Virus record (IMG/VR): IMGVR_UViG_2061766007_001346
Location: 64,001-128,000 of that record
Source of the DNA: a virus
Taxonomy: Duplodnaviria > Caudoviricetes
Strand: one strand, 5' to 3'
DNA: 64,000 nt
Numbering within the stretch: position 1 is the first letter of the stretch; each line of letters opens with the position of its first letter. The notes below the pieces were generated by a model. That model was not told where the DNA came from, made no database searches, and saw only the letters and a program-made list of their open reading frames with translations. The position numbers and the translations under genes were made by a program. Below are positions 1-45,257 of this stretch, piece after piece.

Positions 1-2249
1 GCAGCATCAGCCAAGTTAGACGACAGCGAGATTGTATTATTGGAAATATTAATCCACTGTTTGTCATTAAATCCACCGTTATTTCATAGTGCACAACTAA
101 ATTTTTCTGTAGAAGAATCGTAAACAATAAGGTTGGAACGCATCTTCTCTTCGATGATATCGTAATTAAGCTCGTTGTTATTCTCGCCAGTAAGATTATA
201 TCTTGCGAGGTTATTAATCCATCTGCAGGTAATCTGATAAGGGTTCAGACAAGTATTCCATAACGCTATGGACTGTAGATTAAAGTTTGTGTAATTCTCT
301 TGATTTTCATCACAACCAAGGAAAATCTGATTAAAATTCCTGAAAGCATATATATAAGAGTCCTGAGTTTCTACTGTCTGAAGCAGTACGCCGTTCTGAT
401 AGACTTTGACGAACACAGAAGTTCCATTATTTGTAGTCTTAATGACCTCGCCAAATACAATATCGATTTGCTGGAATATAGAATCTTGTAATTTACCAGT
501 GATTCGAGATGAAGAGCCACCCAACTGTATATAGTAATCATGATTATTGATAAGAATACCAGTACCAGTTGCTACACCGCCATTTTCATAACTCTCAGGA
601 ACATAGTTACCTAATTTAAGTATTGTACGATTATCATCCGGTGTAAAGTCATTATAGTACGAAATGGACAGCGTAAACTGTGGTCTTTGTGCCGAAATCA
701 AACCATTAGATGTTGATTCGGGGAACCATTTCTGCGATACACCATTTAACACGGAAGGTTGAATGATACCGTGAGCCTTATTGGAAAATCTACAGTGCGA
801 AGACGTAATGACAGATTTACCACCCATGTTGAACATTTCCAGTTCGGTAGTTACTGTACGAACGGCATTGTTATATAGGAACGAATCGTTCGTAGATACC
901 CAAGAGTTTATTGTAGCGTTAGAGCCAAACACATAGAAATCGAAGATATTGTTATAATCTGCATCGACAGGAAGTGTTTCTCCGGCACCGGAGGACACAA
1001 AGATATAAGTATCAAGAGAGCCTGTTTTAGAAGGATTATTGACGTCTGTTACAGAAGTTGTAATTCTATAATACGCATTTCTTCTAAATCAAGAAACACT
1101 CGGAAACTCATTATACTGAACAACCGTTGTTCGTCCATATTCACCACGTCCGTCCGTAATTATCGTATAAGGTTCTCCGACATTAATTCATTCCTCTCCA
1201 CTAAGTTCGATTTCCTGAGCACCGATGTTATATCTATAGAAAGCACTACCTCCTGCGAGATATGCGATAAAGTTAGCATATAACACACTACTCCTCGAGA
1301 CTACGGCTGGATTGGATATGTCTGTAGAAAGGCTAACCTTAGCAACCGCGATATTATCAGGACTCACAATTAATATTGTAGAGTTTACCTGTTCAGAGTG
1401 TAGCACACTATCCGAAGCATTAACAAGTATGAAATACAGATCGAACGTCTGTCCTGTGGCAATAGTTTGTACGTTATGTAATAGTTCTGTATAAGGAATC
1501 GTATAATCCAACATACTTGTTGTCGGAATATTTAATTCCACAACACCTTCCGCTAAGGATAAATTCTTATACAGGTCTTTATCACGGCTATAATATAAAT
1601 TATATATGCCAATTTCGCTAGCACTATAAGATACATTCAATCCAGAAGTTTCAAAGTCCGTTCGATTAACATTGATGGAGTTTGGAACAAGAATCTTTAC
1701 AGATAATTCTGCGATTGTGCAGTCTGCATAGATTTCGTTTCCAAATGCATCGGTGGCAATTATTCTGAGCCGGTGAATCGCATTTGAAGAATAGGCGTTA
1801 ATGTTACGAATCTGAACACTTCTTACATTAGTCGCAGAAGGCTGTAGACCAGTACCAGACCAAATCTGCGTACCGTCAAGCAAGACGGTAACGGTAAATC
1901 TGGTAGATGTTTTCGATGATAGTAACCTGTAATCTACTGATTTGGAATTCTCTGTCCATAATATAGATGTTACAACATCACCGTTGTTTATAAATTCGAT
2001 TGAATTTTCTACTTCGGAACTTCCACCGCCGCCACCGGAGCCACCACCTCCGTGCAATGCTAGTCATGCAACATTTTTCTTAAGCAGTTCGATATCTTCT
2101 TTGTTACGAACAAGTGCTTGATCCACAGTTACATATTGTTCCGAATTCTCTAAAAGTAAAGGATTTATAGAATAAATTCCAGAGGCTGAACTAGCAGCCC
2201 AAGGGACTCATTGCCCAGTCTCTGGATTTTTCTTTTTAATTATGGCCAT
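1..2249 (-). CDS. Large virion/tail-associated protein, 3' end outside window (TGA=Trp)
   Basis: ATG at 2249; track ORFs 1188..2057 and 84..998 share a frame and are separated only by TGA; Gly-rich linker, Ig-like and lectin/LamG-like beta-rich segments. Confidence 0.75.
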
Positions 2250-2253
2250 ATAA

Positions 2254-5200
2254 TTAATCTAATGGAATTTCACAACTTGCCCAATGATAACGATATACAT
2301 TACTCATCTTTGCATCATGACCATTTGGCATATCTCTACTAATATTTCAGAAGTCTGCTTTGGAACTCGGCGTATAAAGTCCGCCAACGCGTTCCATATT
2401 TACATAGATGCGAGTAGGCGTTATTCTAAAGCGAGTATAGAATGGATACCACTGTGCAGAACCACCCAGCGGAACAAGATTACGTAGTCACTGGCAGTAA
2501 TCTGTATCTGCAGAAGTATCGGAGTTAGACAGATTCTTAAATCCTGTTGCCTGACACATTACATACGTAGGAGCTGTAACAGCATCAACAATTTCCGCAC
2601 GAACCAGAGGTCGTCCATTAGCGGAAGTGTTTGTTGATTGTGCGTCAAACGTTGTACTTCCGATAGTAACGGCTGTATTTGTCGAATTGAAGATATTACC
2701 GCGCTTATCGCTAAAGTTAGTAAGCAGATAAGAAAGTTTATCGTTTAGTCCGTGAGTAGTTTCGTTGGACGTTCTAAGCACCTGGATAATAGGATTAAAC
2801 GTATCCTTGTTTGACAGATCTCCCATTAAATCCTGAGGAGTATCAGAATAAGGAACATATGCCGTAGGAGCGTCGTAAATTGGATAGGAAATTGAGCACG
2901 TGTGCTTATGTCCACCGAAAACAAGACGGATATTCCAAATCTTAAATAGTCTCTGGAATTCGAAATTATGTCTTAGGTTGAGGTTGGCCTTTGCTTTTTC
3001 ACGCCAGATAGTACCTTCCTTAGTAGGATCGACATATTCTTCATATGTAGCTTCAGCAGTAATAGTGAATGGCATTTCATGGCAGTATACGATTGCTTTC
3101 TGGCAATTCTGAGGAGTATATCTGTCATATTCTGCGGGAACAGAACCTTGTTTCCAGATAAGAAGATCTCTAACCATCCAATCCTCAATTTGATCATAAA
3201 TAACGGAACGTCTTGCGCCGTTGGCCTGATCTTCTACACCAAATTCACCACGTAGCGTAGTAATCTTCGAAGGGTCGTCCGGCATAGTTCTAATCTCAGA
3301 GTTGAGGCTTATGAAGTGATAAGGGCCGTAGTTGAATGAATACAGCGAAGGAACCTTATACGTCTTTGTAGCACCACTGACAACAGATGTGCCTTCGAAA
3401 ATAGGAGGATTATTGTAATCCATTTCCTGAGTATAGAACAGATCTGCAACAACATGATTTACTTTATAAGGAGTTTCGGAACCATTTCCTAGTAACGTCA
3501 TTCCAAGTAATTCAGGATTAGATACGTCATTAGGATTTTCCGGAACTGGAGCAAGGTCATTATTGCCAAGCGTCAGCATTTCCTCTTTATCATCAAGATA
3601 AGAATATCCTCTATAGTAGTCAATCCATTCATTCGGACGGGAACCGTTATAGGTGATGTCGCCAGTATTGATAGTAAAGTCAAAATCGTGTTCGTTTGCA
3701 GAAGGGGTGGGATCGCCTTGTGCGACCACAGGTGTCTGTCCAACACGCTCGTTTCTATTGATATAATCTGCCGACAGATCCCATACTTGATATTCTTCCC
3801 AGTTTGCACCTTGTTGATCAGTCGTCTGAATGAAGTCAAACGATTGCACATCATTATCAGCACGAACAACAAACGTTCTGGTCTTACTCACATAATCGCT
3901 AACTTCTCCAGAAGCGTTCTTTCTGCCAACCTTGAAACTATATGTACCAGCAGTCAAACCAGCAATCATCACTTTGTGAGTTGTTATAGCAGCACCATAA
4001 TAAGTCTCCCATCTAATACGAGTGTAATATTCGGATAGGCCGAGTTTGATACATTCAGGATCAGTAGGGCGATTCAGGCCGGTTGCAGCAGTATAATCGA
4101 CACCTTCCTTATAAGATTCGACGCATGACCAATCGGCGTCTGTAGATTTCTTATACCACAGGAATTCGTCATAGTATCCAACCGAGTTCCAGTTAAAGCA
4201 TCGTGTAGCACCATTGCCACCCGAACCAGTATTATCAGTAGCCTGGATACCAAAGGAACAAGTTAGTGTATTCGGGCGATCCTCTAAGAAGTTATGCTTA
4301 TCGAAAGAAGCGTTCTTATTTTCAAAACTAGCCTTTGGAGTAAAGTCGACGATATTGTCGAATACCTCCTTAGACATATCGATATCTTTCCAAAATTTCT
4401 TGTTGTTTCGTTTATCAATTGATTTAGCGTTAGATTGAGATACCGGATCAAGAGTATAGTTTCTCTTGAATAGGGTATACGGAGTAATGCCGCTGGTAGG
4501 AACATACTTATTCTTTTCAGCTATGCTCGCTCCATTACCAACGCCTGCTAAATCAACGTAACCGCGAGCAACAGAAGGCGCGTTTTCATCAGTATTAATT
4601 AAGTCCAGTGCAGATTCCGGATAATCCTTCATAGGATTGGATGTTCCACCGGACGTATCTCTTACATAAATTTTGCCAGATTCAATATCATATCAGCACA
4701 GATAGAATGTGGCACATTGATTATTTCTATCAAATTTGATTAATTCTCCGTCAGCACGCCATTCCATATCGAATGTCTTAACCTTTATTAGAGTCGTATT
4801 AACATCCATTACGGAACATTGGGCACCACGAATTAGGAATGTAGATTGAGCTTTGCAAACACCCCATAACGGAAGTTTAAACCACCTACTGTTATCATAG
4901 GTATACATTAACTGTAAACCGTTTAGATTAATATCGTCGTAAGATATATTTGCGATTTCCACATAGTTATGAGAACACGGCTGATATGAGTGTTCGTCTG
5001 TATCCAGCCCACCTAAATAGAACGAGTTGATAATCAGGCTTCCCATTCCACTATTATTGAAGTAAATGGTGTTACTTGTTGGCTCGGCCTGTACAACATC
5101 GTTATTTGAATCGTAAACGATTAGATTTCCGTATTCATTAACACGAACAGTATATGTGGAATTTTCGTCGTTTAGTGGTACAAAACTAATCGAAGAAAGA

Positions 5201-5926: not shown

Positions 5927-5957
5927 CAAATATACAAAAAAATTATTAAATATCAAA
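5927..5957 (-). promoter_or_regulatory. Bacteroidota-type promoter (TTTG-N19-TATATTTG)
   Basis: Matches the -33 TTTG / -7 TAnnTTTG consensus upstream of the gene starting at 5820. Confidence 0.7.
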
Positions 5958-5961
5958 AAGA

Positions 5962-5989: not shown

Positions 5990-5993
5990 ACAA

Positions 5994-12557: not shown

Positions 12558-12589
12558 CAAATATAATAAATATTATTGAATTTTCCAAA
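12558..12589 (-). promoter_or_regulatory. Bacteroidota-type promoter
   Basis: TTTG-N20-TATATTTG on the minus strand. Confidence 0.65.
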
Positions 12590-12637: not shown

Positions 12638-13678
12638 CTATATAGATTGTTGTTCAAAGTATGCTTCTTCTGCGAAACTATTTGTTCCAGAGCAACTGAC
12701 AACCAAACTAAAATCATCTGCAATAGCCCCATTATAAGTTAACTGGGCTTTAGTATGATCGGCAAAGTTCGCTGCATTAAGACCCCAATAAACAGTCTGG
12801 TGAGCACCAAGACTCAGTGATTGGTTAGTCATTAATACTTGTTCTACTTGTCCATTATCTATATTTTGAATAAACACTTCAATTCCATTGTAATATGTGG
12901 TGGTATCACCTCCGACAAATTCAATCTGCCAGCTTTGTTTATTCAACCAACTATTATTGGAATCATTATATCAGTTGATTACTCTTGGTGTAATGGTCAC
13001 GGATGATTGTGATCCACCACCACCAGAACCAGATTGTGTAACAGTTATTGTTGCCGATTCACGACCCTCACTTTCCGAAATATAAATATATCCAGTTCTT
13101 AAAGCACCTGTATTTGCGGCAATCACTACCGAAACATTTGTACGACTTCCAGAACCATTTAAATTGTTTGAATCGACTGTTATCCAAGGGTCAGAACTGA
13201 TAGTTCATTCAAGACGAGAATCGATGGTGAAACTAAACTGTGTAGTTAAACCTGCGGCGGGAGCACTGATTGTATCAGGATTTACAGTAATTGTCACCGG
13301 CAAACTATCCTGATAAACAGTAATTGTTACCGATAGATTGCCATATGTGAACGTTACCGTTCCGGTCCTTGTATCAAAACTATTATTTTCTGCACAGGTT
13401 ATTACACAAGTGTTTCCGTTCGTTCCGCTATTTCGACTCAAAGTAATCCAGGCCCTATTTGAACTAGCTGTCCAAGTTCCAGTACATGTAACCGTTACTG
13501 TTCTAGAACCGCCACTTGCCTGACAACTAAAAGTCGAATTTGGACTTACTTGTAGGTTCTCTACGGGTGCGGTAGAACCCCACACCCGTGTTGAACCATA
13601 ATAAACCGATTTTACTTGACTGTTTCCATATCACATTTCGTTTATGGAACCAGAAATACTATATTTAATATCTCCCAT
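12638..13678 (-). CDS. BACON-domain protein, 346 aa (TGA=Trp)
   Basis: Two BACON-like repeats (WTASSNRAWITLS...ENNSFDTRTGTVTF; *TISSDPWITV...NTGALRTGYI); track ORFs join in frame. Confidence 0.8.
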
Positions 13679-13679
13679 A

Positions 13680-16600
13680 TTAATTTAAAACGAAATAAAG
13701 AGTTCTAGGATCACGACTCTGTGGCAAGGCACTAACTACTTCGATACGGTCAACAATATTACTAACATTATAAACGCTATCTTTTATAGTTGGTGTTTTA
13801 ATAACTTGATAAGTATTACCATTAGTTACATCTTGGAATTGCAATTGTTGCGAACTTAACACCGCGGTATCTATAAATTCATTACCGGTACTTCCTAGCT
13901 CAGAATGTACTTGTACCATGCCTAGTGAAAGTTTTGCATAATTTTCTAAGTTAAACATGGTATCTACACCAAGATCGTTTCTAATTTCATCTGGTGAGAG
14001 TGTTGATTTTTGAGTTCATGTGCTAGTCCCACCATCGCCGTTACTTCCAACTGTAACTGCTGTTGTAGTAATGCCACCTTCGCTACCAATAGTTAATACA
14101 CCGTCAATTGTACCACTTTCTGCATGAATTGTACCAGTAATTTCAGCATCGTCGGAGACAAGTTTACCAGTATTATCAACAGTAAATGGAGCGGTAGTTA
14201 GATCTCCCGGAGTTTCTGGTTCACCAGCCCAGATACGAACGTTGCCAACGGTATTTGCACCAGAAGCAGAAGCAACATCTGCACTAGATGCCATACCAGC
14301 AACAACAGCGTTTCCATCGGTGATAATAACCTGTTTTGCGGAAAGTTGATTGATATATGCGGAATTAGCCAGCATTGTTTCAAACCAACTATCGCTTTGA
14401 GGAGTATATGTTTCCCAATGACTAGGATCTGAAGCAGGACTTGCGGGCTTATTATTCGAACAAGTTACATCAGCCTTACATTTATAATAAGAAGTCGTTT
14501 GTCCAGAAACATATCTTACAACATCGAGACAATATATACCGTTAACAGCAGTCGTTCCACTAGAGTACTCGTTCTGAGGATCGGTCCAATCGGAAACTCT
14601 TACAACCTTACCGTCAAGATATTGATATGTTACCACAGTTTCACCGGGCTCACCCTGTTTACCAGGATAAATTACACCAACAGGTTCTGTATCAGTAACA
14701 GTTTGATTATAACCAACAATCGCCAACACGTTGTTCTTGACAACAGCAGATAGCTTCGTCAGATCGAGTATACCATAACAGCTGTAATCGTCGTAATTAC
14801 GCTGATTATCATCGGAATTATAGAATCGAACTGTGAATACAGCAGATGCTGCATTACCAACCCGATTGCCACTTTCGTCAAAGTATAATGTTGCATCAGA
14901 GACACCAGCGGAAACACTTCCACCATATTCTGTGAAGTTGAATGTACTTCTATCGTTGCCGGACGGTGTGGCGATATAATTCTTAAGATATACTAACTTC
15001 TGAGCACCACCATCAAGAGAGTAGCCAAGAACCATATTTCTTTGTGCATCCAGACTATTCGTGCCCATATAACCAGAAATCATAACCTGATTTGGACTAT
15101 AGTCTGTAGCATCCTCGCCACCCTTCTTAATTGCGGCAGGCATAGTATCAAGAACCGTCACAATCTTTTCTGCAAATACAGGAGAGATCGTTATCGTTTC
15201 AGAACCACTATATCCATCAGCATTAGAAGCGGTGATGGTCAGTACAAGCGTGTCGTCCAATATTGCCGGATCTGTAAACGTAACAGATAGCGAAACACTA
15301 TAGTAGATATGTTCGGAAATATATGCATATGCCGGGCGAATCGTTACTGTACCAGTAGATAATGGAAGCGTAACATAGTTGTTGCTTAACGTCTTAGTAA
15401 GATTTGTATTATTGAATGATACGAAATCTATACCGTTAATTGCAACATTGTCAATTGTACGAAGGGTCCCGCTATTATCGTACATAGCAAGGAATCCAAG
15501 ATTGAACGTGGTCTTCAGCGATGCATTCTCCACTCTATCTACGTTATTAATCATCGTCGGATGATTCTGATTCTCAACGCTTAATGAACAAGCCTTTGTA
15601 ACACGAGGGTCTATACCAGCCCAGAGAACTGCGTCTTGGAAGTCTCCCCATTCGCCACCAGTGCCGTCATCGTGGTATTTACGCTTGGAAGCATAAACGA
15701 ACGGACGAGCGTCGGTAACGCCAGGATTGTTATCGGTTGCCTGCAGACCAGGTTCTACCCAAGCGTTAAGAGCGTTCTTATATTTGCAGTAAGGACGTGC
15801 CTCATCTTGAGTATGATATACTGCAAGATTGATAACGGTTAACTTACCACTATTATTGCTCTGAATTAATCGATGCTGAGCGTCAGTTACAGCAAAGAAT
15901 ACATATTCAAGCCCATCGCCATCTCTACCATTCTCGCCAAACTTACTCCAGATAACAGGCGTGCTGAATGAACCATACACAGGATTATTGGAGGCGTCGT
16001 AGGTGATATCACGCTGAGATACATATTCGTACTTATTGACTGCATCAACACCTTCGGGATTATCTGACCAGAACGAAGACGGCGTAGTAACACTTGCGTT
16101 ATCGCCCGGAATGAAATCCTTATGCTGATTATTTACAACAGTCCTATTAGTATCTCCGGAAACATAGCCCTTCGTCTGATGAATTGCATTGAGTAATTCA
16201 GTAGCGTTAAGCTCGTGATCATACAGATGATATATATATTCTACATAGTCACCGTCTTTACCATCTTCAGCGTAACGATTATATATTTGCGGTTGGGACC
16301 ACTCTCTTAGAGTTGGATTGTCAAGCTTTCTTACGGAAATCCAGCAAGGCATTCCGTTAGCAGGAGTAATAGGGGTATCTTCCCACGTTTCATAAGTAAT
16401 AGTTGCGGGAGTTGTGCTATTATCAACAATACGAACTCTTGGAACAACGTTATACTGATAGTAGTACTCGTTCAGATTCGTAGTTACCGTAGAACCGTCG
16501 GGCAAATCAATAGCACCAACATTAGATGAAGTAGGAGTTGTAGGTCTTGTGGCGCTTAGTATAAAGATTTGCTCCATACCGAAGCCGTCATCACCAGACC

Positions 16601-19600
16601 ATTTTGCCCAAGTGTAATCGGTAATCGTAGAAGAATCTTCTACATTGAAGTCAACATACATACCAACATACTTACCAGGGAATTCACCAATTTGCGTGAA
16701 CGGTTGTGTAACTGGAGTAAATGCGAGACGAACCTGTCCAACACCCATTACCGTACATAAAGCACCGTTAGGAGCTTCGTTAGCAAACTTCTGATGGATG
16801 TAGGAACTTTCACCAGCAGGACCTTGAAGGGGACCAACACATCTCCAACCGTATACAAGACCATTTGCACAGTCATCAACAGCGGGAGTTTCTCCGGTAT
16901 AGACCCACATATCAGTATGGTCGATAATATTGTTACTATCAAATACAGTTACCAAGATGGAAGCACCAACCGTTGCAACAGAATTGAACGCGGCCATATT
17001 GGACTTCCAATTACTGGTTGCTTCAGTACAGCCTTCGTATTCAGTAATAAGGGCGTTTACAGTACCAATAGGAGCAAAGGATGTACCATCCTCACCTCGC
17101 CTACCAGTTTCACCTTTAATCTTAGCATACGTCCAGCCACTCCAAGTACCACCGTTTCTGACAGCCGTTGCCATCCATACAGGGGAAGGAATGTCATTTT
17201 CGTCGCCCCAGACAACATTGCCATCTTTTAATCCAGCGGCAGTTCTAAAGGCAACTTCGTCAACACCACCCAAAGCAGTATCATCAATGTATGCATCGTT
17301 GTTAAGATTAGGGAGCGGGTATGCGGTCTTGGCATTCTCTTCGGCACTGAATTCAATCTGGATTCGAGAAGAGTCGCCCAGCATACAAGGTGAAGACCAG
17401 CCAGTATCAGGAACATCTCCAATCAAGTTGTAGGACATCCAAACTGGAGCAGAACCACTAGGGATACTATCACTCCATTCGACATTAACTGTACTTCCAT
17501 TAATGGTAGTTACAATGTCAGAAGGGTCGGTATCGTTACTTAGTACAGCTGTAGAAAGGTTAATACTTGTTCTTGCAAAAATATATGATGTATAAACGCT
17601 TTCGCCATCTACAACATGTCTGTTTCATAGAACAGGAGTAGAGAATGGTTTCCAAACTTTATTGACACCATCATATTTTCTTATAGAAACGAACTGATAA
17701 GGAGTTGAACTGTTAACATTTAACGGTTCGTCGGTCCAGTTTCTATCCCAACCAGTATCGGACTGCCAGCCTTCCTCGGTTATACCAGTCGTTGCATTAG
17801 GATTGGTTCCACCAGGAATCCAGTCGTTTTCCTGATAGTGAGGCGGTACGACAAATTCATTATCCTCAAAGTCTTCTACAGTAGGAGGATATACAGCGCC
17901 ACCAGTATTGTTAAGAGTAACAGCACGGGTTACGCCGTCAATAGTAACATCGCTTTCTCCAGCGAGTCTATAGATGTATTCGACACCGTCGCCATCAACA
18001 CCGTTTTCTCCCCACATGGACCAGATAAACGGAGTGCAGTAGGCACCCCACTGGCCAGTTTCTCCATCCTTGATACGCATGGACGCACCTTCGATTTCGT
18101 GATCCACATCAATACCCTGAGGGTGATTGTACCAGTGTCCAACAGAATCTTCAGGTTCGGTGCTCGGAGGAATATTAACCTTATCTGCATTAAATGCGGC
18201 TAAATCAGCATATAGTTTGAAGATGAATTCAACGCTATCTCCATCGACACCAGGATTGCCATCTATACCAGAAATACATATAGGCGTTTGCCAATCAGAT
18301 GAGGCAATAACTGTACCATCGGAATCAAATGTAGCAGAAGTCATCCATAATCGACTACCATCGTTTGGATTGTTTTCCGGACTTTCCTTCCAAGGGCTGC
18401 CAGCAGCTAACGTAAGCGTGTTAGTAGATCTATCTCATGCACAACCAGCGGGTTTAGCAGGAACGGCAGGATCACCAGTACCCGGCTTATACCAACGATA
18501 GACAAGGAATGTTCTGGAAGTTACCACATTGAACTGACCGCCAGCAAGATTATCGATACGCGCATTAAGTGCGTCAATACCGGCCTGATAAGTAGCTCTT
18601 GTAACATAGTCGGTCAAATCCTGAATTGTATCGCTGTCAATGAACTCTCCTACATCGGTCCAAGTAGAACCATTGTTATAAGAGATATATAGATGATTTT
18701 GTGCAGGAGTTCCAACACTACCATCACCAATCTTTATCTTCAGCGCAGTAAGATCTGCGGAAGTACCGGAACCACCACCACCAACAGCACCGACTGGTTG
18801 CCAAGAATCTGCAACACCGTTTCGATATGAGATATAAAGATAGTTGTCCTCAATCTTAAGTTTGATATTAAAACCGTTAGCAACTAGATCCTGAAGTGTA
18901 GCGGAAAGATTATTAAGTTCGGTTTTAGTAGCATATGCAGATAAATCCTGATTTCCGCCGCCACCGGTGATAACGATATTTCCACCTTCGGTAATCTTTT
19001 GGCCATTAATCGTAGCCATGTCGGAATCCTTAAGGAAGCGTGCATCAGATTCAGCCTTTGTGTATGCATCCGGAACTTCGGATTTCTTGGCGTAATCGCT
19101 TAGATTTTCTGCAGTAAGATAAGCACCCTTGGTCTGATATCTTAAATCAGATTCAGTCTTGCTGTATGCATCAACAGGAGCGATGCTATTGACGGCAATT
19201 TCCAGTTGACGTAATTTATTATTAATTTGATTTAAATCTATTTCGTAATTGGCGAAAGGAATTTTACCAGCATCAAACAGAATATCGCCTAATTCAACGT
19301 CGGAAATAACTCTATGACCTTCGGCAGTGCTATCGTATGTGGCATGAATAACCTGTCGGTGTCCAAAGTGATAATAACCATCGTCATCGGCCCAGAACGA
19401 GACTCCTGCAAGAGCCAGGTTCATCAAGTCTGAGATGTGAATTAGGTTGTTCCATTCTTCATCGCCTTCGCGTTTCCATTGAATGAAATTAGCAGGTCCT
19501 GATTCTTCGTCAGAACGCTTAGTATTATCGGAATCAACTCTAAGGATAAGAGGTTTGTAATCCTGTGCACGAAGATCGTCTAAATTAATTGGTGCAGGAG

Positions 19601-20027
19601 CACGATTGCTTCTCGTTCTTTCCCAAACGATTGTATTATTAATTCGTTCCGGTCTCCAGGAAGGAGGGGTTAGATCCGTAGTGGCAGCAATACGTTCTCC
19701 GTCAGCATAAAGAATCACCTGTCCGTTGTCGAATCTTGCGGTAATTCTAGGAGTACGTCCAGGAATACCCTGAGCTCCAGTAGCACCATCGTGTCCGGTC
19801 TCACCTTCACTAACAATCTTCATTAAGTTGACCTGATCTTCTATATGAGCTGCAGTAGTAACAAGTTCCTGCACTGCGCACACATAAAGATTTCGGCCAT
19901 CGGTAACAAAGTCTACGTCTGTTCCATTATTATGGTAAGTAGCTCCTTGCTGATACACATAAAAGTTTAGTTTGGGCACAGAAACATTAGGGCTTGATGC
20001 GATATCTCTTGTTGTAGTTTTAATCAT
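13680..20027 (-). CDS. Giant tail/fibre protein, ~2115 aa (3 TGA=Trp)
   Basis: Four track ORFs share one frame; repeated G-x-DG-D-x-VE(Y/F)I(F/Y) / W-x-x-x-P / TPVIW modules and short collagen-like triplets. Confidence 0.85.
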
Positions 20028-29300: not shown

Positions 29301-30257
29301 TTATATAATATAAGGCGTATTCCTATCTAATAACTTCTTGTTTCTCTGTTTCTTTGCAAAGTCCTTGATAAGTCTATCCACGTCTTCCTTTAAATAAGGG
29401 ACTTCGTATAAGGATTGGTTGCCATCATGATCTATATGAATAATCTGCAATTGTTTAATCTTATATTTCGGATTTCTCTGCTGCAGCATTCTTGCATATA
29501 GACTTAACTGTAATTGATAGTGAACAAGGGTAGAATCCATGAGATTGTTTATGGGAGCTTTCATCATTTGATACTTCTTTCTTTTTTTATCGAAATAAGA
29601 AGTTTTCTTTATTTCTTTATTCGATTTATAGTCGCCAATATAAACATCATTTCCATCTACTATTAATAGGTCCGCTTGTCCTACCAGAGTTAAATCTTCG
29701 AATGTAGCTGATATCAGAAATTCAGGATAGACACCTTTATCTAAATCAAGAATGTTGTGATTCTGGATGCATGTGAACGAACCCTTCAATCCTTTGAAAC
29801 CATATGGTTCAAAATCGAAGGTATGTGAGCCATACATCTGCAATTCTTTTTCCAAATGTATGGCTGTACCTCTTTCACATGCCGTATCTCGTTTTTCTTT
29901 ATATTCTAATTTTATTTCGTTTTGTTTTAGAAGAAACGCTTCGCGATTAATATTATAGTTTTCAACAATATAATCTAATGTTTTACTGGAAAATTGCTTT
30001 GTAGCAAGTAACTTTGGTTTCAAGAACGATCATCTATCGCAATCGACCATTTCTTCAAGAGCTTTATACGCACTCCAGAAATTTTCATCAAATGGCTGCG
30101 AATATTGCGAAATTAACTGCGTGACCGATGTGTACTTTTCACCAGTTTGTTTATTAAAATAGAGATGCTTTTCGTCATTGAATGCACATAATTCATCTTC
30201 CTTGTCAACTCGAATTCCATTAATATATTTTTCTTCTATATTTTGAGCTTTAGGCAT
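29301..30257 (-). CDS. PD-(D/E)xK exonuclease, 318 aa (TGA=Trp)
   Basis: YTSVTQLI, RGTAIH, PE..I, GQADLL, IGDYKS, HYQLQLSLY. Confidence 0.85.
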
Positions 30258-30773: not shown

Positions 30774-30822
30774 CAAATATAGCAAAAAAATTTTGTAATT
30801 CAAAATTATTTTAGTATTTTTG
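30774..30822. promoter_or_regulatory. Overlapping divergent Bacteroidota-type promoters
   Basis: Minus strand TTTG-N19-TATATTTG (30804->30774); plus strand TTTG(30792)-N19-TATTTTTG(30815). Confidence 0.7.
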
Positions 30823-31929: not shown

Positions 31930-31930
31930 T

Positions 31931-34834: not shown

Positions 34835-36106
34835 TTAAATCGTTTTGCCGTCTGGGCCAATGTGCAAATGAGCACCCGTAGCTCCAGTTCGTCTTTGCAT
34901 CTCTTTACTTCTTTCATCGAGTATGCCTCATCTATGTTCCCTCAGATAAGCACATACTCTTGGACTACCATATATCTTGGAAAGCAGTTCATCCCATGAC
35001 TGTCCTGCCAATGGCGTGATATCCATTGCATTACCGTGCGCATGGTGAGAAACCTTACCGGTACTTGTTCTCGCACCAGGTCTAGACACAGAAGTGATTC
35101 TGAACGAAATTCCTTCTTCGGCCATAAGATCGATAAGTTCCTTCATATTACCTAAGTCCATGTTTTGCTGTTTAAGTTCAACAGCGCCTCTATCTTTTTG
35201 TTCAGGAACTGTATAATGTCAATTTCTACTAAAATCGTCAACATCCCACGCTGATACGGATTCGACAGGAAAAGAATCCATCTTTTCAAATACCAACGGT
35301 GGAGTTTCATCGGGAAGTTCCGTTGATGGTGATGTACTTGCATCAAACATGTTATAAACTAAACTTCCTCCATTTGCATAAAATCCTTTATATACTAAGA
35401 ATTTCGAAACATGATTTTCTGGATAAGAATAATGTAACATTTCTTCTAAATTTTTAGGGTCTTGCTGTCATTTCACTTCTTCTCCCCAACTTGGATGATA
35501 TACACTCTTAAGCCCATGCCAGTCTCCTTTTTCGTCCGTATATCCACTCGGCAGATGATTTTTTTCAGGATCTTGTCTTCAAGCATCGATCAATTCCGGA
35601 GGAAGTTCCCTTATAGCAGCTTTCGTATCATATTCCGGATCTTCTGGGATTGGAACCATTCCCAACTTGGCATATTCCAAACGCTTCTGAATTTCAGAGT
35701 CCACGTTCGCCGGACGTGCGAACCTACGAGTAAAGATTTCTACAGCTCTTTCTAAGGAATCAGCCTGTTTGAAAGCGTCTGAATTCGCAACTTGGTCCCG
35801 CCAAGTACGACCGCTCCAGCCCTTCTTTTCCAGTTCGTTCAATAATACCGCTGTTTGTCTTTTGAGTTCGGCGTTTCTATCATTGCTTCCAATCCTATAT
35901 CTATCCGAATCTCATTGAATTAGGCCGTGCCATAATCCGTTTGAACTGATAGCGAGTGGATTTCCACTAGATTCACGTTGTATGTTTCCTAAGATCGCGG
36001 CCCTTTGATATACACCATATCCAGCTTTTTGTAATTCCGAATTTATGTATTCGAATACCTTGGTAGCTTTAGGATTTATTTTTGTGTAATCAAGTTCGTC
36101 TCACAT
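34835..36106 (-). CDS. Dual peptidoglycan hydrolase: phage tail lysozyme plus M15 peptidase, 423 aa (TGA=Trp; begins ATG TGA)
   Basis: AAILGNIQRESS...GLIQ*...F...FARP; C-terminal ITS..RPG...SHH..GNAMD...HLHIG; track fragments share one frame. Confidence 0.8.
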
Positions 36107-37603: not shown

Positions 37604-37651
37604 CGAATATACAAAAAAATTTTGAGATATGCAAAATATTTTCTATATTTG
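37604..37651. promoter_or_regulatory. Overlapping divergent Bacteroidota-type promoters
   Basis: Plus strand TTTG(37621)-N19-TATATTTG(37644); minus strand TTTG-N20-TATATTCG. Confidence 0.65.
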
Positions 37652-37752: not shown

Positions 37753-39030
37753 ATGGGAAAATACAAAGTAAGAAAAGGCGATTCCTGGATAAGCATTGCT
37801 AACAATAACGGCCTCAATCTTAATGACCTGTTATACTGGAACGGAATCGACCCTATGTCCAGAGAACAATTGCCAATGATAAATCCTGGCGCAGAGTTAT
37901 ACATATCAGATCCATACAGATTGCAACCGTCAATGGTTACTGCACAGGCACCTCAGGACTATACAGAGTTCGGAGAGACTGGACAGGATTTGATTAATAA
38001 GTATGCATTGGCTGTAAGACAAGGTAAGTTAAAGTTTGATCAGGTACCGAAGGTATATAAGACCGCTGTGTATCAGAAGATGATTACAAATACTACTGAC
38101 AAAGCCGCACACACTATCTTTAATGCGGGCCTCAACACAGGTTTGGCCATGACAGATCCTATAGGCTACGGTCTCGCTCTTGCTTCGCAAAAAGGCGCGG
38201 CATATGTAAATGATGCTGCATCTGGAAGACATGAATATGGAATTGGAGATTTGTTAGATTATACACCTGTAATGGGTACACGATATGCGCAGGAGAACCC
38301 TGGAAAATCTATAATGATTGACGCTGGTACAGGACTCGCTGGTGGTGCTGCATTAAGAAATCTTCCGAACTGGATACGGTATGTGGCTCAGAATGGACGC
38401 GGAATGATGCAGAATGCCTTACGTACCACTGGTATGCAAAGACAGGTACAAATGCAGCCCGGTAATCAAACTTTCGGTACTGTGTATACATCTGGTGGAA
38501 AAGGTGTTGGTAAAACTGGCACAGTTCGTGCAGGACATGTTGGCGGATACCAACCGAACGCTAGCGCTAAAGGTACGTTTGGTAACCAGTCTTCTGGAAA
38601 TGCGACCAGATGGATTGCGCCGGATAAGAATATTCCTGCCGTACCGGTCAATCCCGTACCATTCCGTCCTGTTATGTCTCCGGTCTTCGTACCGCCACCA
38701 GTCGAATCGCCTGTGCGCGTTCCTACTCCGGAAAAACATATCTACGAACAGCAATCGTTCAACAGATGGCAGATGCCTAATCCTACAGGTGTTGTCGGAC
38801 CATATCAACCCGGAACTGGTATATTTAGCATAAGCGGGCACGCTCCTGTCGGAAATACCGTCGATCAGCAAGCCCTTACAAGAGAAAGCCTGAAATTCTA
38901 TCCCAATGACTATGCTCCGAGAATTGCAACATTCGTTCCAGAAAAGATTTCTGGTACACCATCCAATGTGTTCAGCGGACTTGGTATATTATATGGTGGT
39001 GAGAATCCTGGTAGTTTAATTGTAAAATAA
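37753..39030 (+). CDS. LysM-domain protein with Gly/Pro-rich tail; no TGA
   Basis: YKVRKGDSWISIANNNGLNLNDLLYWN...INPGAELYI. Confidence 0.85.
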   Translation: MGKYKVRKGDSWISIANNNGLNLNDLLYWNGIDPMSREQLPMINPGAELYISDPYRLQPSMVTAQAPQDYTEFGETGQDLINKYALAVRQGKLKFDQVPKVYKTAVYQKMITNTTDKAAHTIFNAGLNTGLAMTDPIGYGLALASQKGAAYVNDAASGRHEYGIGDLLDYTPVMGTRYAQENPGKSIMIDAGTGLAGGAALRNLPNWIRYVAQNGRGMMQNALRTTGMQRQVQMQPGNQTFGTVYTSGGKGVGKTGTVRAGHVGGYQPNASAKGTFGNQSSGNATRWIAPDKNIPAVPVNPVPFRPVMSPVFVPPPVESPVRVPTPEKHIYEQQSFNRWQMPNPTGVVGPYQPGTGIFSISGHAPVGNTVDQQALTRESLKFYPNDYAPRIATFVPEKISGTPSNVFSGLGILYGGENPGSLIVK

Positions 39031-39031
39031 C

Positions 39032-41269
39032 ATGAAATACAAGTTTAAGGACGGCGGTGTCGTAAAATTGCAAAATGCGTGAACAACAATGCCCAATCCT
39101 GAAGATTCGATACGTCGTGCATGGGAAACACAGGCCCAAAGAGAAAGAGAGGCAGCCTTCACGGACTCTTTGGGCTATATTACCCAAGGCGATGGTAAGA
39201 AACGAAACGCTCTGACATGATGAGCACAGGACACTGCCAAAGGACAGGAAGCCGTACGTGCATTAAACACACTTAAATGAGCTGCCGACAAAGGTCTTAT
39301 GCTTGCCGGTGGAAACTGACTCCTAAAAGGCCTGAAGGCAAAGAAATATCTGACTACCGCTGGAGAACTTGTCGGTGGTGCTGTAGGTGCGGAAGGACTG
39401 AATCAGGCTGGAAAATGAGTAGATAATAAATTGGGAACATCCAATCCGTTCCTGGATTTCCAGAAACTAGGAACGTTGTCCGGAGTAATACTTGGTGCTT
39501 CTGGAGCAAAGAAAAGTTTGCAGTGAGCTGCCGGAAAGGGAGTCAATCTTCCCGCCAGCAATATGGAATTCAATAACTTAAGGACACAATATCTTAATAA
39601 TACTGCAGGAAGGGCAAAAATCCAGACTCCTAACAAGGGCTGGGAGAACTATTCCAACTATGATGTTTATGAGAACGCGTTCAAAAACAAACCGTCAGTC
39701 GATTTATCGGAACCGATAACAATGGATGAAGCTAAAGCTTCTGCAAGTCGGTGATTAGGTGATAGAATTCAACTTGGTGATCCAGAGATACTCAAGGATT
39801 TACAAATAGCTCCGAGCAGTACTCCAGAAACAGGATATATTGACTTCTACGATACATCGAAGCCTATAAACAAGTCGTTACGTAAGACGTTCTATGCCGC
39901 TCCTGATGGACAAGGTTATAGTTACGGCAGACCTGTAATACAAGGCGTTATGCACAGAACAGTCGATGGTACCGAATATCTGGAATATCCAAGAAACAGC
40001 AATATCAGATACTATCTCGGTAAGTTCAAAACCGAAGGAAAAGATCCTACCTTAGTACACATAGGCCCGCCAAATATGGATGGTACTGTAATGAAGCCTC
40101 GTCCGGATCCGTTACGCCGTGTCGATCAAGATTTTCTATGATGGCAGAGAAACAATCCGTTCTGGTCGAAAGGTGAAATTACCACTCGAATAAACGATGT
40201 GGTCCCGTCCAAATCAGCAATCGGAAACGTCAATTCAGACTATCCAACTCGATTGACAGGTGCAGTGGACTTAGCAGATCCGAAGCTAAATACCGTACAG
40301 ATGCAATACAATCCACTAACCAAAACGTTTGGTTGGATGAAGTATGTGGTTCCCAAGGAATTCGAACCTACACCACAAGAAGCGGCGACAACATATCACT
40401 GAGATCCGCGGGCGAAAGTAATGAGCAGACCGATAAGCGATGCTGAATTAGCCGGAACACCTAGAGGTGAGAGAAATCAACCGGCACCAAGACATCACAT
40501 TCCGATATCGTTAATCAATAGGTCGAATTCATACTTGCCGATTGAAGGCGACAGTTTCGCTCTCGAATCACCAGAAGTATCGAAACGTCTTGCTTCGGTT
40601 CACTTTACCATAAACGAACCTGTAACTGGAAACAGCGGCGGTAGTTGAGATTCAGCATCCACCACCCTCTTATTCCCGTATGGGAATCTTCGAAAAGTTG
40701 CCGCACCGATAAATCTGGAACCAATGGATACGTTCTTCCCGAACTATAATGGTTTGCGTTTCAGTACGAAGGGCGCAAAAGTCTTTACTGGAGATAGAGC
40801 GGTACACGATTATTACACACAGCACGGTGTAGATTCGAAGTTCTCGGAGGAACTGGAAGCGTTGCTTAGAGAATATAACGCGAAGAATGGTGTTGCTGAT
40901 AAATATCTTGCCGAACACGATTGGCTTCCGGATGAAGAATACTATAAATTACATAAGGCTGAAACAGATGTGTCTGATAAAATTCAGCAAATGCATTTCG
41001 ATTTTGTAGACCAGAATGCGGAACGTCCGTCTCTTGAAGATGTTCATAGATTAGAACAGATTGAAGGATTAAAAACCGGTGCGGATCCGGTTAGGTATGA
41101 TGGTATGGCTACAGACTTACAAAGAAGACTGGGATATACATGATTCAGTGCCCCATCTACACACTGGGCGTTAACTATGTACGAACCCGGAGAAGATCTT
41201 TCAAAGTTGCCGAAAGGAATGCAAGATTTCGTGAGATGAATATGGGCGCACAAAGCCGACTATAGATAA
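39032..41269 (+). CDS. Cargo-like protein, 745 aa (13 TGA=Trp)
   Basis: MKYKFKDGGVVKLQNA*; five track ORFs share the frame; no TAA/TAG until 41267. Confidence 0.8.
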
Positions 41270-41270
41270 T

Positions 41271-41304: not shown

Positions 41305-41307
41305 GTT

Positions 41308-44300
41308 TTATTTATGTAATGGGTTCTTAAATCTACCGCCATTTCTGATCATATCGGGTGTAACCGTCCTACTAAAATTAGAGGCCACATCATTAAATAG
41401 ATGTAATAGAAAATCATCCGTATATCTGTCCAAAAACATTACTTTCAGACTATCTTTATCTTTAACAGTTCTTCGCATTACATCAAGGTCGTCCTTAGAA
41501 TACTTATATTGCGGAGATTTTCCGAATTGTTTTAATATCTCATTTCTCCTCGAATAAATTTCGGTGGGATGATCCCAATAATCGGCACGGTCCGTTGGGA
41601 AAGCATTCTTCGACAGATAGTCTCCATTTTTCATAAAGTCACGTATCTGCACTTCCTGTGGCGCACCACCGAGAGCGTGACTTTGTTCGTGAAGGATAGT
41701 GCCCGGATGTCAGTTACCTTTATATATTTTAATTTCAGGATTGTCTCTATATCTAGGAGGGCGTTGTATGTCTGTTCTGCCGTTTGGAGCGATATAGGAT
41801 AAACCAGACCATCAATTCAATTGATCCTCCGATTCAACATGTCTTACATTTCCAGTAGAACCGGATCTGAATGAACTATATCCAGTATCTTTATAGCTTG
41901 TTCTGTATAATTGGGATAGTTGTCTGGACAATTCCTCGTTTAAACTGGGATAATAGGTACTATATACATAACCCGTAGGATCCGTTTCCGTCGTGAGATG
42001 AGTATTTAGATTCTGAATGTTTTTATCGAGCAAACCCTTTCTGTTAATCAATCAATGAGTTAGCCAATCCTCACCTTCTTTAATCATGTTCTGTTTTCTA
42101 ACGGAAAGGCCTTCCTGTCCTTTTAGGATTCCGCCTCGCTTTTCCTTAGAAATCGTAGCTGTACCTAGTCCTATAGGAGCTGCGGCACCAACATATTTCA
42201 TAGCTTCTCTAAACGATTTTATTCTTTCGGGAGTTAACAAATTCTTGTTTCTTAAAGATTCTACAAATCTCTTTCCATATCCACTTGCGTTCTCAATCGA
42301 TTCCACTATTTTCTCATCAGGTACCTTATCTATAATCTTATCTTGTAGATCAATGGAAATCTTTTTACTTTTATAATTCCCCAATAATTTTTCTCTTGCA
42401 TCAGCATTAAGTGTTACCATTTCTCCTCCAAGGTCACTCATGTCTTTAAACACATCATATTCGTTGCGTAAATTTAAGAAATCGTTTCCATACGCATCTA
42501 TGAGAAATCCCTTTTCTTTATCAGTTAATGGTAAATGTTGATCTACAAGATGTCTCAGTTCATGCGGAATAACATCTTCTGGATTTTCAGAGCCCTTAAT
42601 GGCAACATAGTCTTTACCCGTAGCCGCGTTCTTATCATAAAATCCAATTATTTTACTATTTAATCCTGCAGCATCGAACGTCTTATTAGGGAACGTGTTA
42701 TATGTTATGTCAATCAAATCATTAAATTCGGAGTCCGAAATATTTCTTCCGTTTCTGCGTAATCTTGGAAGAGTTGTGTTCAACAGTAGTTGTTTTGAAT
42801 TATCGCTTACTGGGAATGTTGTCCCAAGGTAATCTTCGGATACTGGCAATGCCGGTTCTTTTCCCAACAGAACGTCCATATAACTATTCTTCATTAGCTT
42901 TTTTCAAGTGGCCAAATCATTGAGCGATACATAATGTCCTTTGAATAAATCGTCTTTATACGGATTTCCGTAAACGGAGAACTTGATGCCCGGCTCATTA
43001 TACTGAAAATGTCCCCCAACGAAATCTTTGAACTTTTCCACATCGGGTTTACTTCCCAGGATTTGGATTCGCTCTGGATTTACATCGGGAACAACCAGTA
43101 CATCCGAACCAAATTCATTATCGGCGTTATTGTGTAACAGTACATCAGCTCCCTTCTTTTTCATTAAATCTCATATACCTCTTTCGGAATAATACGTGTT
43201 CCCACCATTGATTTTAAGAGGTTTAGAAGCATCTACTTTTACATGATACAATCCGTTATATTTTCCGGAATTGTATATATCAGAGAATATCTTCCTGTTC
43301 CTGTTGACAAAGTCATTGAATGTTTCCCCTTCCCGTACACCAAGCTGTTTCAAGAAATCTGCATTTGATTTATCTCCAGCTCCAAATTCAGCCTTATATT
43401 CGGATAACCATTTGCCGTTGGTCCCGCCAGTATCTCTTGTGAACTTTCCAGCTCTGTTCGGAATCTTTTCCCGCAATGTCGCAGAAGTAATTGGTTGAGT
43501 TTTCCAGGCGTCCGATGTATATGGTTTACCAAGGATTTCTTTCAGCGGTCAATACACTCGTTTATTCCAATGTCCAAAAGGAATTCCGATTCCGTCAACA
43601 TATTGCAGCGACGTTTCTGGCTGTAGATTGAAATACATATCGTTACGTCCTAGTGTTTCCGGAGCACCTGTGTTTATTTGTTTTGTTGATTTGGACAAAC
43701 CTTCCGACAAATCGGAATTCGTACCATGTGCATATGGTATCTGTACCTTAGACGCAGGAAAAACAGTATCATAATACTGTCTATACATCTGTTTCGATCC
43801 AATCTTTCTAAGTTCAGGATTTTCCATGAACAGATGATCTATTGTACGGTCAATGTACTTATTGTCAGCGGGTTTCGGAGCTTTATTATACACTTTATTA
43901 AAGTACTGCCCTCTCAAATCGGAAAACGTTTCTTTTGGTATTCCCATTGTAATACCATTTCCGGCGGCAGATCTTAACAGGGGATTTACAGCACCAGAGC
44001 CTAGTACATAACCACCAAGTCCTCCGGCGATACGCATCGTCGGACCGACAAAATTACTGGCAAGCTTACTATCTACTCAATCTCCGGCTTTACCCAGAGC
44101 ATTGGACGCAACATTACTGGCGGCCAAGCCACCAGCAATCCTGGCAGCGCCGCCTAACGCACCATATGTCGTGAATTCGGGAGCAAATAATACCGCCAGT
44201 TCTGGATGTTCCGTCTGGAGCGGTAAATCTTTATTGAATTTTCCACTGGCACGACCATCGGATTTGGAGGCTGCTTCGGCAAGTATCTCGTGCAATATCT

Positions 44301-44463
44301 CCTCCGATTGTTTATCATTCTTGAATTTTATACGTCTCTGGCCAGTATCGATAGGGAAAATCTTGACTGATGTATTGTCTCTCTGCGTTTGGACAGGCTC
44401 CACTTCGGGTACCTTGCCCGCCCGTTGCAGTTTTATTATCTTGTTGTCAGTTTTATAGTTCAT
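41308..44463 (-). CDS. Polyvalent protein, 1051 aa: ADP-ribosyltransferase-like domain plus two zincin (HExxH) domains (TGA=Trp)
   Basis: Seven track ORFs share one frame; YAHGT...DMYF (ART-like), PHELRH...GEM, LHEQSH...PTEIYSR. Confidence 0.8.
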
Positions 44464-44485
44464 ATCAAGGTATTTATAGTTCGCG

Positions 44486-44517
44486 CAAATATAGTGAAAA
44501 AAATTGACAAAAACAAA
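44486..44517 (-). promoter_or_regulatory. Bacteroidota-type promoter
   Basis: TTTG-N20-TATATTTG upstream of 44463. Confidence 0.7.
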
Positions 44518-44525
44518 ATAATTAT

Positions 44526-45257
44526 CTAAAATTCATACTCTTTTTCAAAATTTACATCCTTGGAAACCTTCAATAATTCATTCTCCTTCTTTAAGTTCTT
44601 ATTCTCCCGAAGAGCCATTTCCAACATGCGTTCCAGATTGGTGATTCTGTCCTCATGATTATCAACCCTTTTATTAATGTAAAGAATGGCCTGTCCAATC
44701 TTATGCATATCAACCGCCTTGGCAGGAATGTTGAAACCAGCGTCATCCGTCAAGGAAGTGGCTATCTCAGTCATAATCTCCTTCTCCTGCAGAGACTTAT
44801 TATAGTTCTGAACGGTTCTTAACGGGATGTTCAGATTGTTTGCAATCTCCTGATTGGAGTATGTGGTAACTGCGTAATCCTCGCTTTTAAAAGATTGCGA
44901 GTGCAGGCCTATTAAATAGGCCTTTTCTTCGGGAGTTATCTTCTTATTATCAAGGAATTCCGGAGTAAACCGTTCGAAATTCTTGAGCAATTCCTTGAAA
45001 CGATACATGTCTGACTGGCCTTTCCTCTTAATGATCTCAATCAAACCCTCTTTATGTAATCTCTTAATACTCGTCCTAATCGTGGGGACAGAACAATCAC
45101 ATGCCGTGGCAACTGTGTTCAGCGATGGTCAGCAGCATTTAGTGTCCTTATTCATATACCTTCTAATGTTAGCATATACCAGATAGTCAATCGGTTTCAA
45201 TGTCTTTCTTTCTTTTACAGGATCTGGTACCTGTATGTGTTGTTGAGAATGTTCCAT
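44526..45257 (-). CDS. Double-HTH protein, putative replication initiator, 243 aa (TGA=Trp at codon 43)
   Basis: DYLVY...C*PSLNTVA..C..S..TI...IK.L.K.G.I HTH; second HTH SNQEIANNLNIPLRTV; adjacent to iterons. Confidence 0.7.

Follow-up and report, generated by a model that had tools for sequence, protein, structure and literature searches.

A crAss-like phage genome with two coding regimes, one almost free of TGA and one in which TGA appears to encode tryptophan

Introduction

Partial, block-wise reassignment of the opal stop codon TGA to tryptophan (Trp, W), accompanied by suppressor tRNAs, has been described in crAss-like phages, particularly those of the Zeta group (Yutin 2021, PMC7886860), whose genomes measure 145-192 kb (PMC7886860; PMC12386605). 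In the opal-recoding Zeta phage Lera, which belongs to the 'Echekviridae' proposal, 18% of all open reading frames (ORFs) contain TGA (PMC12386605). Borges et al. have proposed that stop-codon recoding regulates late and lytic genes (bioRxiv 10.1101/2021.08.26.457843), and a use case of Mgcod presents genomes that are divided into contiguous blocks of different codes (bioRxiv 10.1101/2022.06.29.495998). Here we analyze TGA usage in a 64,000-nucleotide stretch of viral DNA (hereafter, the window), which comprises bases 64001-128000 of the 177,170-bp IMG/VR virus record IMGVR_UViG_2061766007_001346 (genome G000), and in the remainder of that record. TGA appears to be read as Trp over about three quarters of this genome, and is nearly absent from a contiguous block that carries a predicted suppressor tRNA with the anticodon UCA, hereafter tRNA(UCA).

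The genome resembles the opal-recoding Zeta phages in several respects. It carries many tRNAs, including a tRNA-Sup(TCA), and its TGA codons break the genes for the large terminase subunit (TerL), polymerase, helicase and structural proteins, all of which are restored by translation table 4. The reassignment covers only part of the genome, and homologues of its TerL contain inteins. Unlike the listed opal Zeta genomes, which have a GC content of 30-33%, the present genome has 37.6%, and unlike the 18% of ORFs in Lera, about 70% of its genes outside the TGA-free block contain TGA. As in the model of Borges et al., the early genes can be read in the standard code, the part so readable includes the suppressor tRNA gene, the recoded genes would become translatable at a later stage, and the recoded codon is depleted as a stop. 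However, whereas the replication machinery is spared in their Agate example, here the genes for DNA polymerase, two helicases, primase, ligase and NrdD carry TGA, and the 'code-change module' of release factor 1 (RF1) and tryptophanyl-tRNA synthetase (TrpRS) found in their Jade phages is lacking. The contiguous code blocks also recall the block-wise dual coding of the Mgcod use case; the non-recoded block described here, however, is better called TGA-avoiding than 'standard code with TGA stops', with 0 TGA stops among well-scoring genes and 5/71 overall. Finally, the present phage encodes a transfer-messenger RNA (tmRNA), a feature that goes unmentioned in PMC7886860, PMC12386605 and bioRxiv 10.1101/2021.08.26.457843.

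Since these three papers already describe the dual-regime design, the genome introduces no new principle, and provides instead a clean, complete two-regime example with two full-length relatives for comparison. It extends those papers slightly, in that the absence of TGA from early genes is put into numbers for three genomes, the replication genes are recoded (unlike those of Agate) and the phage carries a tmRNA.

Results

We first compared ORF coverage under alternative codes. ORFs of at least 150 amino acids (aa) cover 0.54 of the genome under code 11, 0.56 when TAG is read as glutamine and 0.82 when TGA is read as Trp. The gain from TGA occurs everywhere except at about 110k-151k of the genome, in line with the two-block division that a sequence-only reading of the window had proposed. 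In total, 275 in-frame TGA codons occur in 77/110 genes, and outside the TGA-free block TGA makes up 36-47% of all Trp codons. By block, the counts are 119 TGA and 192 TGG in the structural block (37/47 genes with TGA), 72 TGA and 129 TGG in the replication block (30/52 genes) and 59 TGA and 67 TGG in a set of giant genes. A minus-strand arm from 109.3k down to 11.4k carries the structural genes together with the giant ones (1255-3471 aa), so that the recoded arm of the window continues leftward to genome base ~11.4k; the recoded replication block lies on the plus strand, from ~151.5k across the record ends to 11.4k. In the replication block, in-frame TGA was counted in the genes for DNA polymerase (3), the SNF2 helicase (6), DnaB (2), primase (5), NrdD (1) and ligase (1). 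The sequence-only reading had placed the recoding in late genes alone. The split into two blocks is real, but replication genes and giant virion genes, most of which lie outside the window, carry TGA as well, as do an exonuclease and an initiator-like gene inside it. Because both replication genes and giant virion proteins contain TGA, the split is one between early genes on one side and middle plus late genes on the other.

The left arm of the window shows the effect of the code on individual genes. Its 37 genes contain 106 TGA and 150 TGG codons. Under table 11 the arm falls into fragments, which under table 4 join into proteins of 753, 741, 2115 and 1051 aa, exactly those that had been rebuilt earlier from ORFs broken at TGA. 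Three internal controls, in which TGA and TGG recur in near-identical contexts within one gene, proved exact to the codon: PKQIL-TGA at codon 9 and PKQIL-TGG at codon 62 of the gene at 32510-33757, NK-TGG-SND and NK-TGA-SND in the gene at 26471-28198, and TPVL-TGA and TPVI-TGG in the gene for the 2115-aa protein. The names given earlier to the first two proteins, TerL and portal, are borne out by PHROGs matches (Table 1), while Pfam yielded nothing for either; 'tail protein' for the 2115-aa product and 'polyvalent protein' for the 1051-aa product gain no such backing, as neither has a match in Pfam or PHROGs.

To determine the meaning of TGA, we examined the residues that homologues carry at the corresponding positions. 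In a TerL alignment of 113 sequences (this phage and 112 homologues), W occupies four of the six TGA positions in 106-112 of the 112 homologues, the remaining two being W/L/F or W/Y/L/F mixtures, and the TGG positions of the gene behave in the same manner. Since the database proteins in this alignment were possibly translated with table 4, the test was repeated on two TerL genes with an open frame under table 11. In these genes the TGA positions correspond to W (encoded by TGG), F, Y, P or L/I, as do the TGG positions. Alignment at TGA positions, a check proposed with the sequence-only reading, thus returns mostly Trp in the large homologue set, and chiefly W, F or Y in TerL proteins made in the standard code.

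A codon-level comparison of 19 window genes with 14 IMG/VR relatives gave a similar picture. At 181 TGA sites the relatives have TGA 90 times, TGG 49, TAT 17, AGA 5, TTT 4, GGC 2 and TGY 2, and at 302 TGG sites they have TGA 124 times, TGG 90 and TAT 29. The shared codon profile of the two sets of sites implies that TGA and TGG are synonyms, and the scarcity of GGN (2/181) and TGY (2/181) at TGA sites excludes glycine (the code 25 meaning) and cysteine. Furthermore, the density of Trp codons agrees between the early block (13.8 per 1000 codons) and the recoded blocks (12.5-17.2 per 1000) only if TGA is counted as Trp. The base that follows TGA is distributed as that following TGG (p = 0.15), and the position of TGA within genes is unbiased, a bias towards gene starts being rejected (Kolmogorov-Smirnov p = 0.11, left arm of the window). 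The lack of either bias indicates an ordinary sense codon rather than a context-dependent read-through site. Four independent lines of evidence therefore support the reading of TGA as Trp, namely homologue alignments, interchange with TGG, the density of Trp codons and a Trp-type tRNA(UCA), described below.

The block in which TGA brings no gain, hereafter the early block, lies on the plus strand and extends beyond the window (Table 1). The part inside the window consists mostly of small ORFs (up to 416 aa), along with tRNAs, the tmRNA and an RNA-repair gene with a HAD domain (58770-59243). As called under code 11, the entire block comprises 71 genes with 137 TGG and 0 in-frame TGA codons; the stops are TAA in 50 cases, TAG in 16 and TGA in 5, and at a coding score of at least 15 they are 28, 8 and 0. 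In window positions 45605-64000, supported genes likewise contain 0 in-frame TGA, and the stops number 21 TAA, 11 TAG and 3 TGA, in agreement with the earlier statement that genes of this arm use only TGG for Trp and almost only TAA or TAG as stops. The three TGA stops terminate ORFs of 42-52 aa with low coding scores, one of which overlaps a tRNA, and at a score of at least 10 the counts become 15, 10 and 0. Reading TGA as sense adds no coverage in this block. With no in-frame TGA, hardly any TGA stops and no gain in coverage, the early block can be regarded as code-neutral. Code-4 ORFs with TGA were also considered here and were mostly spurious N-terminal extensions or short read-through tails; an ORF of 64 aa with 3 TGA (genome 146187-146381) has no homologue in either of the two relatives introduced next.

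To assess whether the two regimes are conserved, we used two complete relatives with terminal repeats, G001 (176,795 bp; TerL identity 61%; GC 32%) and G002 (167,986 bp; 60%; 33%). Each contains a tRNA-rich block of ~35-45 kb that gains little or nothing from reading TGA as Trp, and in each tRNA(UCA) is the last tRNA, situated at the block edge that adjoins the recoded replication genes. Orthologues exist for 16 early-block genes, in which the 66 TGG sites of the present phage correspond to TGG 42 times and to TGA 0 times in the relatives, whereas TGG sites in the recoded blocks correspond to TGA 99 times and to TGG 92 times (Fisher p = 4e-12). This difference, of 0 versus ~50% TGA in orthologues, shows that TGA is actively excluded from early genes across the lineage, and the exclusion is the best internal argument that a naive host cannot read TGA as Trp. 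The genome thus consists of two blocks, with selection acting against TGA in the early one, and the three-genome comparison measures this selection directly: early Trp codons are never TGA, and elsewhere TGA and TGG are synonymous. As a separate observation, G002 carries besides its tRNA(UCA) a tRNA with the anticodon UUA (G002:83959-84033, minus strand), which would read the ochre stop.

The search of the remaining genome for a tRNA-Trp(UCA), another check proposed earlier, was successful. The only tRNA with the anticodon UCA lies at genome 145708-145779, 17.7 kb past the window end and inside the TGA-free block, and no tRNA-Trp(CCA) is present in the genome. The tRNA(UCA) scores 52.9 bits against the Rfam tRNA model and has 71 nt, a 7-bp acceptor stem and a short variable loop. 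In a BLAST search of a phage collection all of its annotated matches were tRNA-Trp, and a BLAST search of E. coli genomes gave no match. Its discriminator base is G73, as in the counterparts of both relatives; G73 is an identity element for bacterial TrpRS. ARAGORN labels the gene 'SeC', a label that stems only from the UCA anticodon. We considered a selenocysteine tRNA and rejected it, as tRNA-Sec has an 8-bp acceptor stem and a long variable arm and serves rare UGA sites with SECIS elements, whereas in-frame TGA occurs 275 times here. From these features we predict a Trp-type suppressor tRNA. A promoter, TTTG/TATATTTG, ends 58 nt upstream of the gene (genome 145620-145650 = L018:1421-1451), and a 9-bp GC-rich hairpin, GCCCCTACA/TGTAGGGGC, followed by a T-run lies on its 3' side (genome 145780-145830; L018:1590-1625), which together mark tRNA(UCA) as a transcription unit of its own. 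No such promoter is visible upstream of the counterparts in G001 and G002, where a tRNA-like T-arm fragment is found instead.

With respect to kinship, the genome encodes TerL, portal and muzzle proteins of the crAss type, the muzzle domain (Pfam PF25731) being found in a gene at genome 44467-49317, which is not part of the window. In tblastn comparisons, TerL shares 26-28% identity with its counterparts in classified Crassvirales, with Suoliviridae as the best named match, and 46% with that of MT835470, an unclassified human-gut phage. The DNA polymerase matches phrog_1252 (E 2e-138), and Pfam searches of the genome found neither PolA (PF00476) nor PolB (PF00136). Also encoded are SNF2-type and DnaB-type helicases, a Toprim primase, NrdD, an ATP-dependent ligase, ThyX and a chaperonin. 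CheckV puts the completeness of the record at 100%; the record terminates within a repeated gene, its final 50 bases being seen again near base 618, and has a single gap of 10 N (genome 175730-175739, outside the window). By these sequence features we classify the phage as crAss-like (Crassvirales), with a genome that appears complete or nearly so. It probably belongs to the Zeta group, judging from genome size, tRNA load (15 tRNAs, in addition to one tmRNA) and its complex replication apparatus with its own DNA polymerase.

We then turned to transcription signals. The 17.7 kb of intergenic DNA contain 13 copies of the bipartite motif TTTG-N17-23-TAnnTTTG, the consensus of Bacteroidota promoters for the primary sigma factor, compared to 0.95 +/- 0.96 in shuffled sequences (maximum of 4 in 300 shuffles), so that the promoters noted in the sequence-only reading are indeed present. 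In 12 of the 13 cases a gene start or tRNA(UCA) follows 23-107 nt downstream; the thirteenth, at genome 42168, is 184 nt from the closest start of a plus-strand ORF. The promoters precede recoded operons and replication genes, and the TGA-free block holds only the tRNA(UCA) site and one other. In G001 and G002 the genome-wide enrichment of the motif is about two-fold. Together with a BACON domain, kinship to Crassvirales and the avoidance of TGA in early genes, these promoters point indirectly to a standard-code host, presumably of the Bacteroidota.

This arrangement parallels the crAss-like phage phi14:2, in which an RNA polymerase injected with the virion transcribes the early genes, which share no common promoter motif, and the host RNA polymerase transcribes middle and late genes from host-type promoters (Drobysheva et al., bioRxiv 10.1101/2020.03.07.982082). 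Similarly, host-type promoters stand before the recoded operons of the present phage and are nearly absent from its TGA-free block. Unlike the present phage, phi14:2 uses the standard code. By analogy, the code boundary may coincide with a polymerase boundary. Family searches found no RNA polymerase, and PHROGs gave no match for the giant genes of 3471, 3197 and 2642 aa.

Discussion

Combining these results, we consider it very probable that this member of the Crassvirales infects a standard-code host and uses two coding regimes, with UGA unlocked as a Trp codon by tRNA(UCA). In this model, the ~42-kb plus-strand block, which has almost no TGA either as sense codon or as stop, would be translated early in the code of the host, since its avoidance of TGA makes it translatable in a naive cell. 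The Trp-derived tRNA(UCA) would then accumulate and be charged by host TrpRS, and UGA would come to be decoded as Trp. The other ~135 kb would thereby become translatable, with its plus-strand replication genes and, on the minus strand, the genes for virion, packaging and giant ejected proteins. We infer the order of these events in time, the identity and code of the host, and the outcompeting of host RF2.

Several observations weigh against this model. Support for the timing, for the charging of the tRNA and for Trp at UGA in protein is indirect. RF1 and RF2 (PF00472, PF03462) and TrpRS (PF00579) were absent from the genome by Pfam, in searches for which control genomes were positive; the search for RF1 had been suggested earlier and gave no match. 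Without these factors encoded by the phage, efficient reading of up to 18 UGAs per gene in competition with host RF2 is left unexplained, and an early-gene product that acts on RF2 is possible. A TGA-ending early ORF at genome 143757-143903 is conserved in the relatives, so that the block is nearly rather than absolutely free of TGA. The gene calls are simple ORF and codon-score calls rather than those of a trained gene finder. A TerL scan of 185,579 bacterial genomes found no relative and so gave no hint of the host, and for some opal-recoding Zeta phages the iPHoP prediction is a host among the Bacillota, a group that likewise has the standard code (PMC12386605).

The lack of phage-encoded RF1, RF2 and TrpRS also lends some weight to a different explanation, in which UGA remains partly a stop and read-through is leaky and tunable, the number of TGA codons per gene setting the yield of full-length protein in the manner of an attenuator. 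Host RF2 should then go on competing, and the share of TGA among Trp codons is indeed uneven, reaching 13/21 in the gene at 39032-41269 compared to 0/5 in its neighbour at 37753-39030. However, proteins that are essential, abundant or very long are rich in TGA, with 14-18 in each of the giants of 1521-3471 aa and 6 in TerL, and read-through of 50% per site would make the yield of such proteins negligible. TGA also differs from TGG neither in the base downstream nor in positional bias, and the two swap like synonymous codons. We therefore regard attenuation by read-through as improbable.

Much less likely still is a host that itself reads TGA as Trp (code 4) or glycine (code 25), which the phage would merely match. 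Code-25 phages of Absconditabacteria do exist (bioRxiv 10.1101/2021.08.26.457843), and the TerL scan yielded no host for the present phage. Yet a code-4 host would leave unaccounted for both the 42-kb block that is TGA-free in three diverged genomes (0/42 versus ~50% elsewhere) and the conserved phage tRNA(UCA), and phages of code-25 hosts have TGA in ~90% of their genes (bioRxiv 10.1101/2021.08.26.457843). The glycine variant, a code-25 phage of Absconditabacteria or Gracilibacteria, is rejected both by this block and by glycine codons at only 2/181 TGA sites, and the Bacteroidota-type promoters, the BACON domain and the Crassvirales kinship point to a phylum with the standard code. That the TGAs are true stops (in pseudogenes or through assembly errors) or selenocysteine codons is least credible of all. 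In its favour is the ARAGORN 'tRNA-SeC' label, given for the anticodon only; against it, the frame is kept across all 275 in-frame TGAs in 77/110 genes, TGAs are conserved or exchanged for TGG in independent metagenomes, the geometry of tRNA(UCA) is not that of tRNA-Sec and its best annotated relatives are tRNA-Trp, and cysteine codons occupy just 2/181 sites.

That the replication machinery of this lineage is recoded agrees better with a lock on all that follows the early phase than with one on lysis alone. Moreover, annotation of such genomes requires a block-aware code, without which ~40% of their coding capacity is lost.

A more speculative extension, which we hold only tentatively and think rather unlikely as a whole, is that the code switch is wired to a switch of RNA polymerase. 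An injected phage polymerase may transcribe the TGA-free block, and tRNA(UCA) may be a unit of the host polymerase, with a terminator and a promoter of its own, the latter of the same class as those of the recoded operons, such that UGA decoding starts with middle and late transcription. Under the same proposal, the tmRNA may handle ribosomes that reach the end of host mRNAs after reading through UGA stops.

Additional features of the genome

The coordinates of the principal features are listed in Table 1. Within the otherwise minus-strand recoded arm, plus-strand islets occur at 28240-29271, 30846-32470 and 37753-41269.

Table 1. Features of the 64,000-nucleotide window, in window coordinates unless stated otherwise
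Feature	Position	Strand	Evidence or remark
Recoded arm, mostly minus strand	1..45257	-	32/37 genes with in-frame TGA
BACON-domain protein	12638..13678	-	3 TGA; domain family typical of Bacteroidota and crAssphage
2115-aa protein, function unassigned	13680..20027	-	3 TGA, 44 TGG; TPVL-TGA/TPVI-TGG internal control
Portal protein, 741 aa	20788..23013	-	3 in-frame TGA; phrog_6547, E 9e-58
Large terminase subunit TerL, 753 aa	23280..25541	-	6 in-frame TGA; phrog_6681, E 1e-60
PD-(D/E)XK exonuclease	29301..30257	-	1 TGA; non-structural gene within recoded arm
Phage tail lysozyme domain protein	34835..36106	-	6 TGA
LysM-domain protein in recoded arm	37753..39030	+	0 TGA, 5 TGG
745-aa protein	39032..41269	+	Heaviest TGA use in window (13/21 Trp codons)
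1051-aa protein	41308..44463	-	7 TGA; no family match
Bacteroidota-type promoter	44486..44517	-	23 nt upstream of 1051-aa gene
Replication-initiator or DnaD-like helix-turn-helix protein	44526..45257	-	1 TGA; first gene of leftward arm
Divergent intergenic boundary	45258..45604	.	Between recoded minus-strand arm and TGA-free plus-strand block
TGA-free ('code-neutral') early block	45605..64000, on to genome ~151k (23 kb past window)	+	~42 kb, genome 109.6k-151k
tmRNA, phage-encoded	56299..56691	+	ARAGORN; Rfam RF00023, 67.1 bits vs gathering 47; predicted 30-residue tag ending AA then TAG
Five tRNA genes (Met, Lys, Gln, Glu, Ser)	56949..59389	+	ARAGORN; none reads UGA or UGG
Further promoter, same motif	5927..5957	-	
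Further promoter, same motif	12558..12589	-	
Further promoter, same motif	30774..30804	-	
Further promoter, same motif	30792..30822	+	
Further promoter, same motif	37621..37651	+	
Further promoter, same motif	51248..51278	+	

Among the virion genes of the recoded arm lies a gene for a Stealth CR2 family protein, resembling capsular polysaccharide phosphotransferases, with 3 TGA (window 8899-9798, minus strand). Several close TerL homologues (P0041, P0084, P0111, P0114, P0117, P0119) are 990-1135 aa long and contain intein or homing-endonuclease domains, whereas the TerL of the present phage has no intein.

In the early block, a cluster at genome 129066-143612 (L019:1066-15612) encodes two class-II glutamine amidotransferases (GATases), an amidoligase, a phiEco32-like COOH-NH2 ligase and a peptidase C26, and is a putative peptide or amino-group ligation system. 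A segment of higher GC (53% at 48-50 kb of the window) holds two well-scoring genes (48540-49088 and 49198-49866) and is followed by ~1.2 kb that is poor in ORFs (49870-51105); an Rfam E-value search of window 45000-54500 returned only a chance hairpin, at 49873-49933. The phage also carries an RNA-repair toolkit, consisting of a 'Swiss Army Knife' HAD domain (window 58770-59243, plus strand), a polynucleotide kinase-phosphatase and an ATP-dependent ligase (genome 5037-5918 and 2257-3432), which may protect tRNAs, the suppressor included, against host anticodon nucleases.

The tRNA(UCA) of the relative G001 has an unusual form. It is 94 nt long (G001:80187-80280 = L027:1450-1543, minus strand) and has a second hairpin in the position of the variable arm, whose loop is the normal Trp anticodon loop CUCCAAA. 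We found this five-arm design in 14 IMG/VR contigs, the G001 relative and 13 others (L050-L063). A1-U72 and G73 are invariant among them, compensatory changes are seen in the outer pairs of the extra arm, and 9 of the 14 contigs have a normal tRNA-Trp(CCA) close by. The tRNA(UCA) of the present phage is without the extra arm.

The predicted tag of the tmRNA is, at 30 residues, unusually long. No match to the tmRNA was found in the phage collection, no exact 27-mer match in IMG/VR and no counterpart in G001 or G002, and Pfam gave no match for SmpB (PF01668) in the genome. Two unrelated phage contigs with UGA-suppressor tRNAs (L061 and L062) also carry tmRNAs, with predicted tags of 16 and 23 residues.

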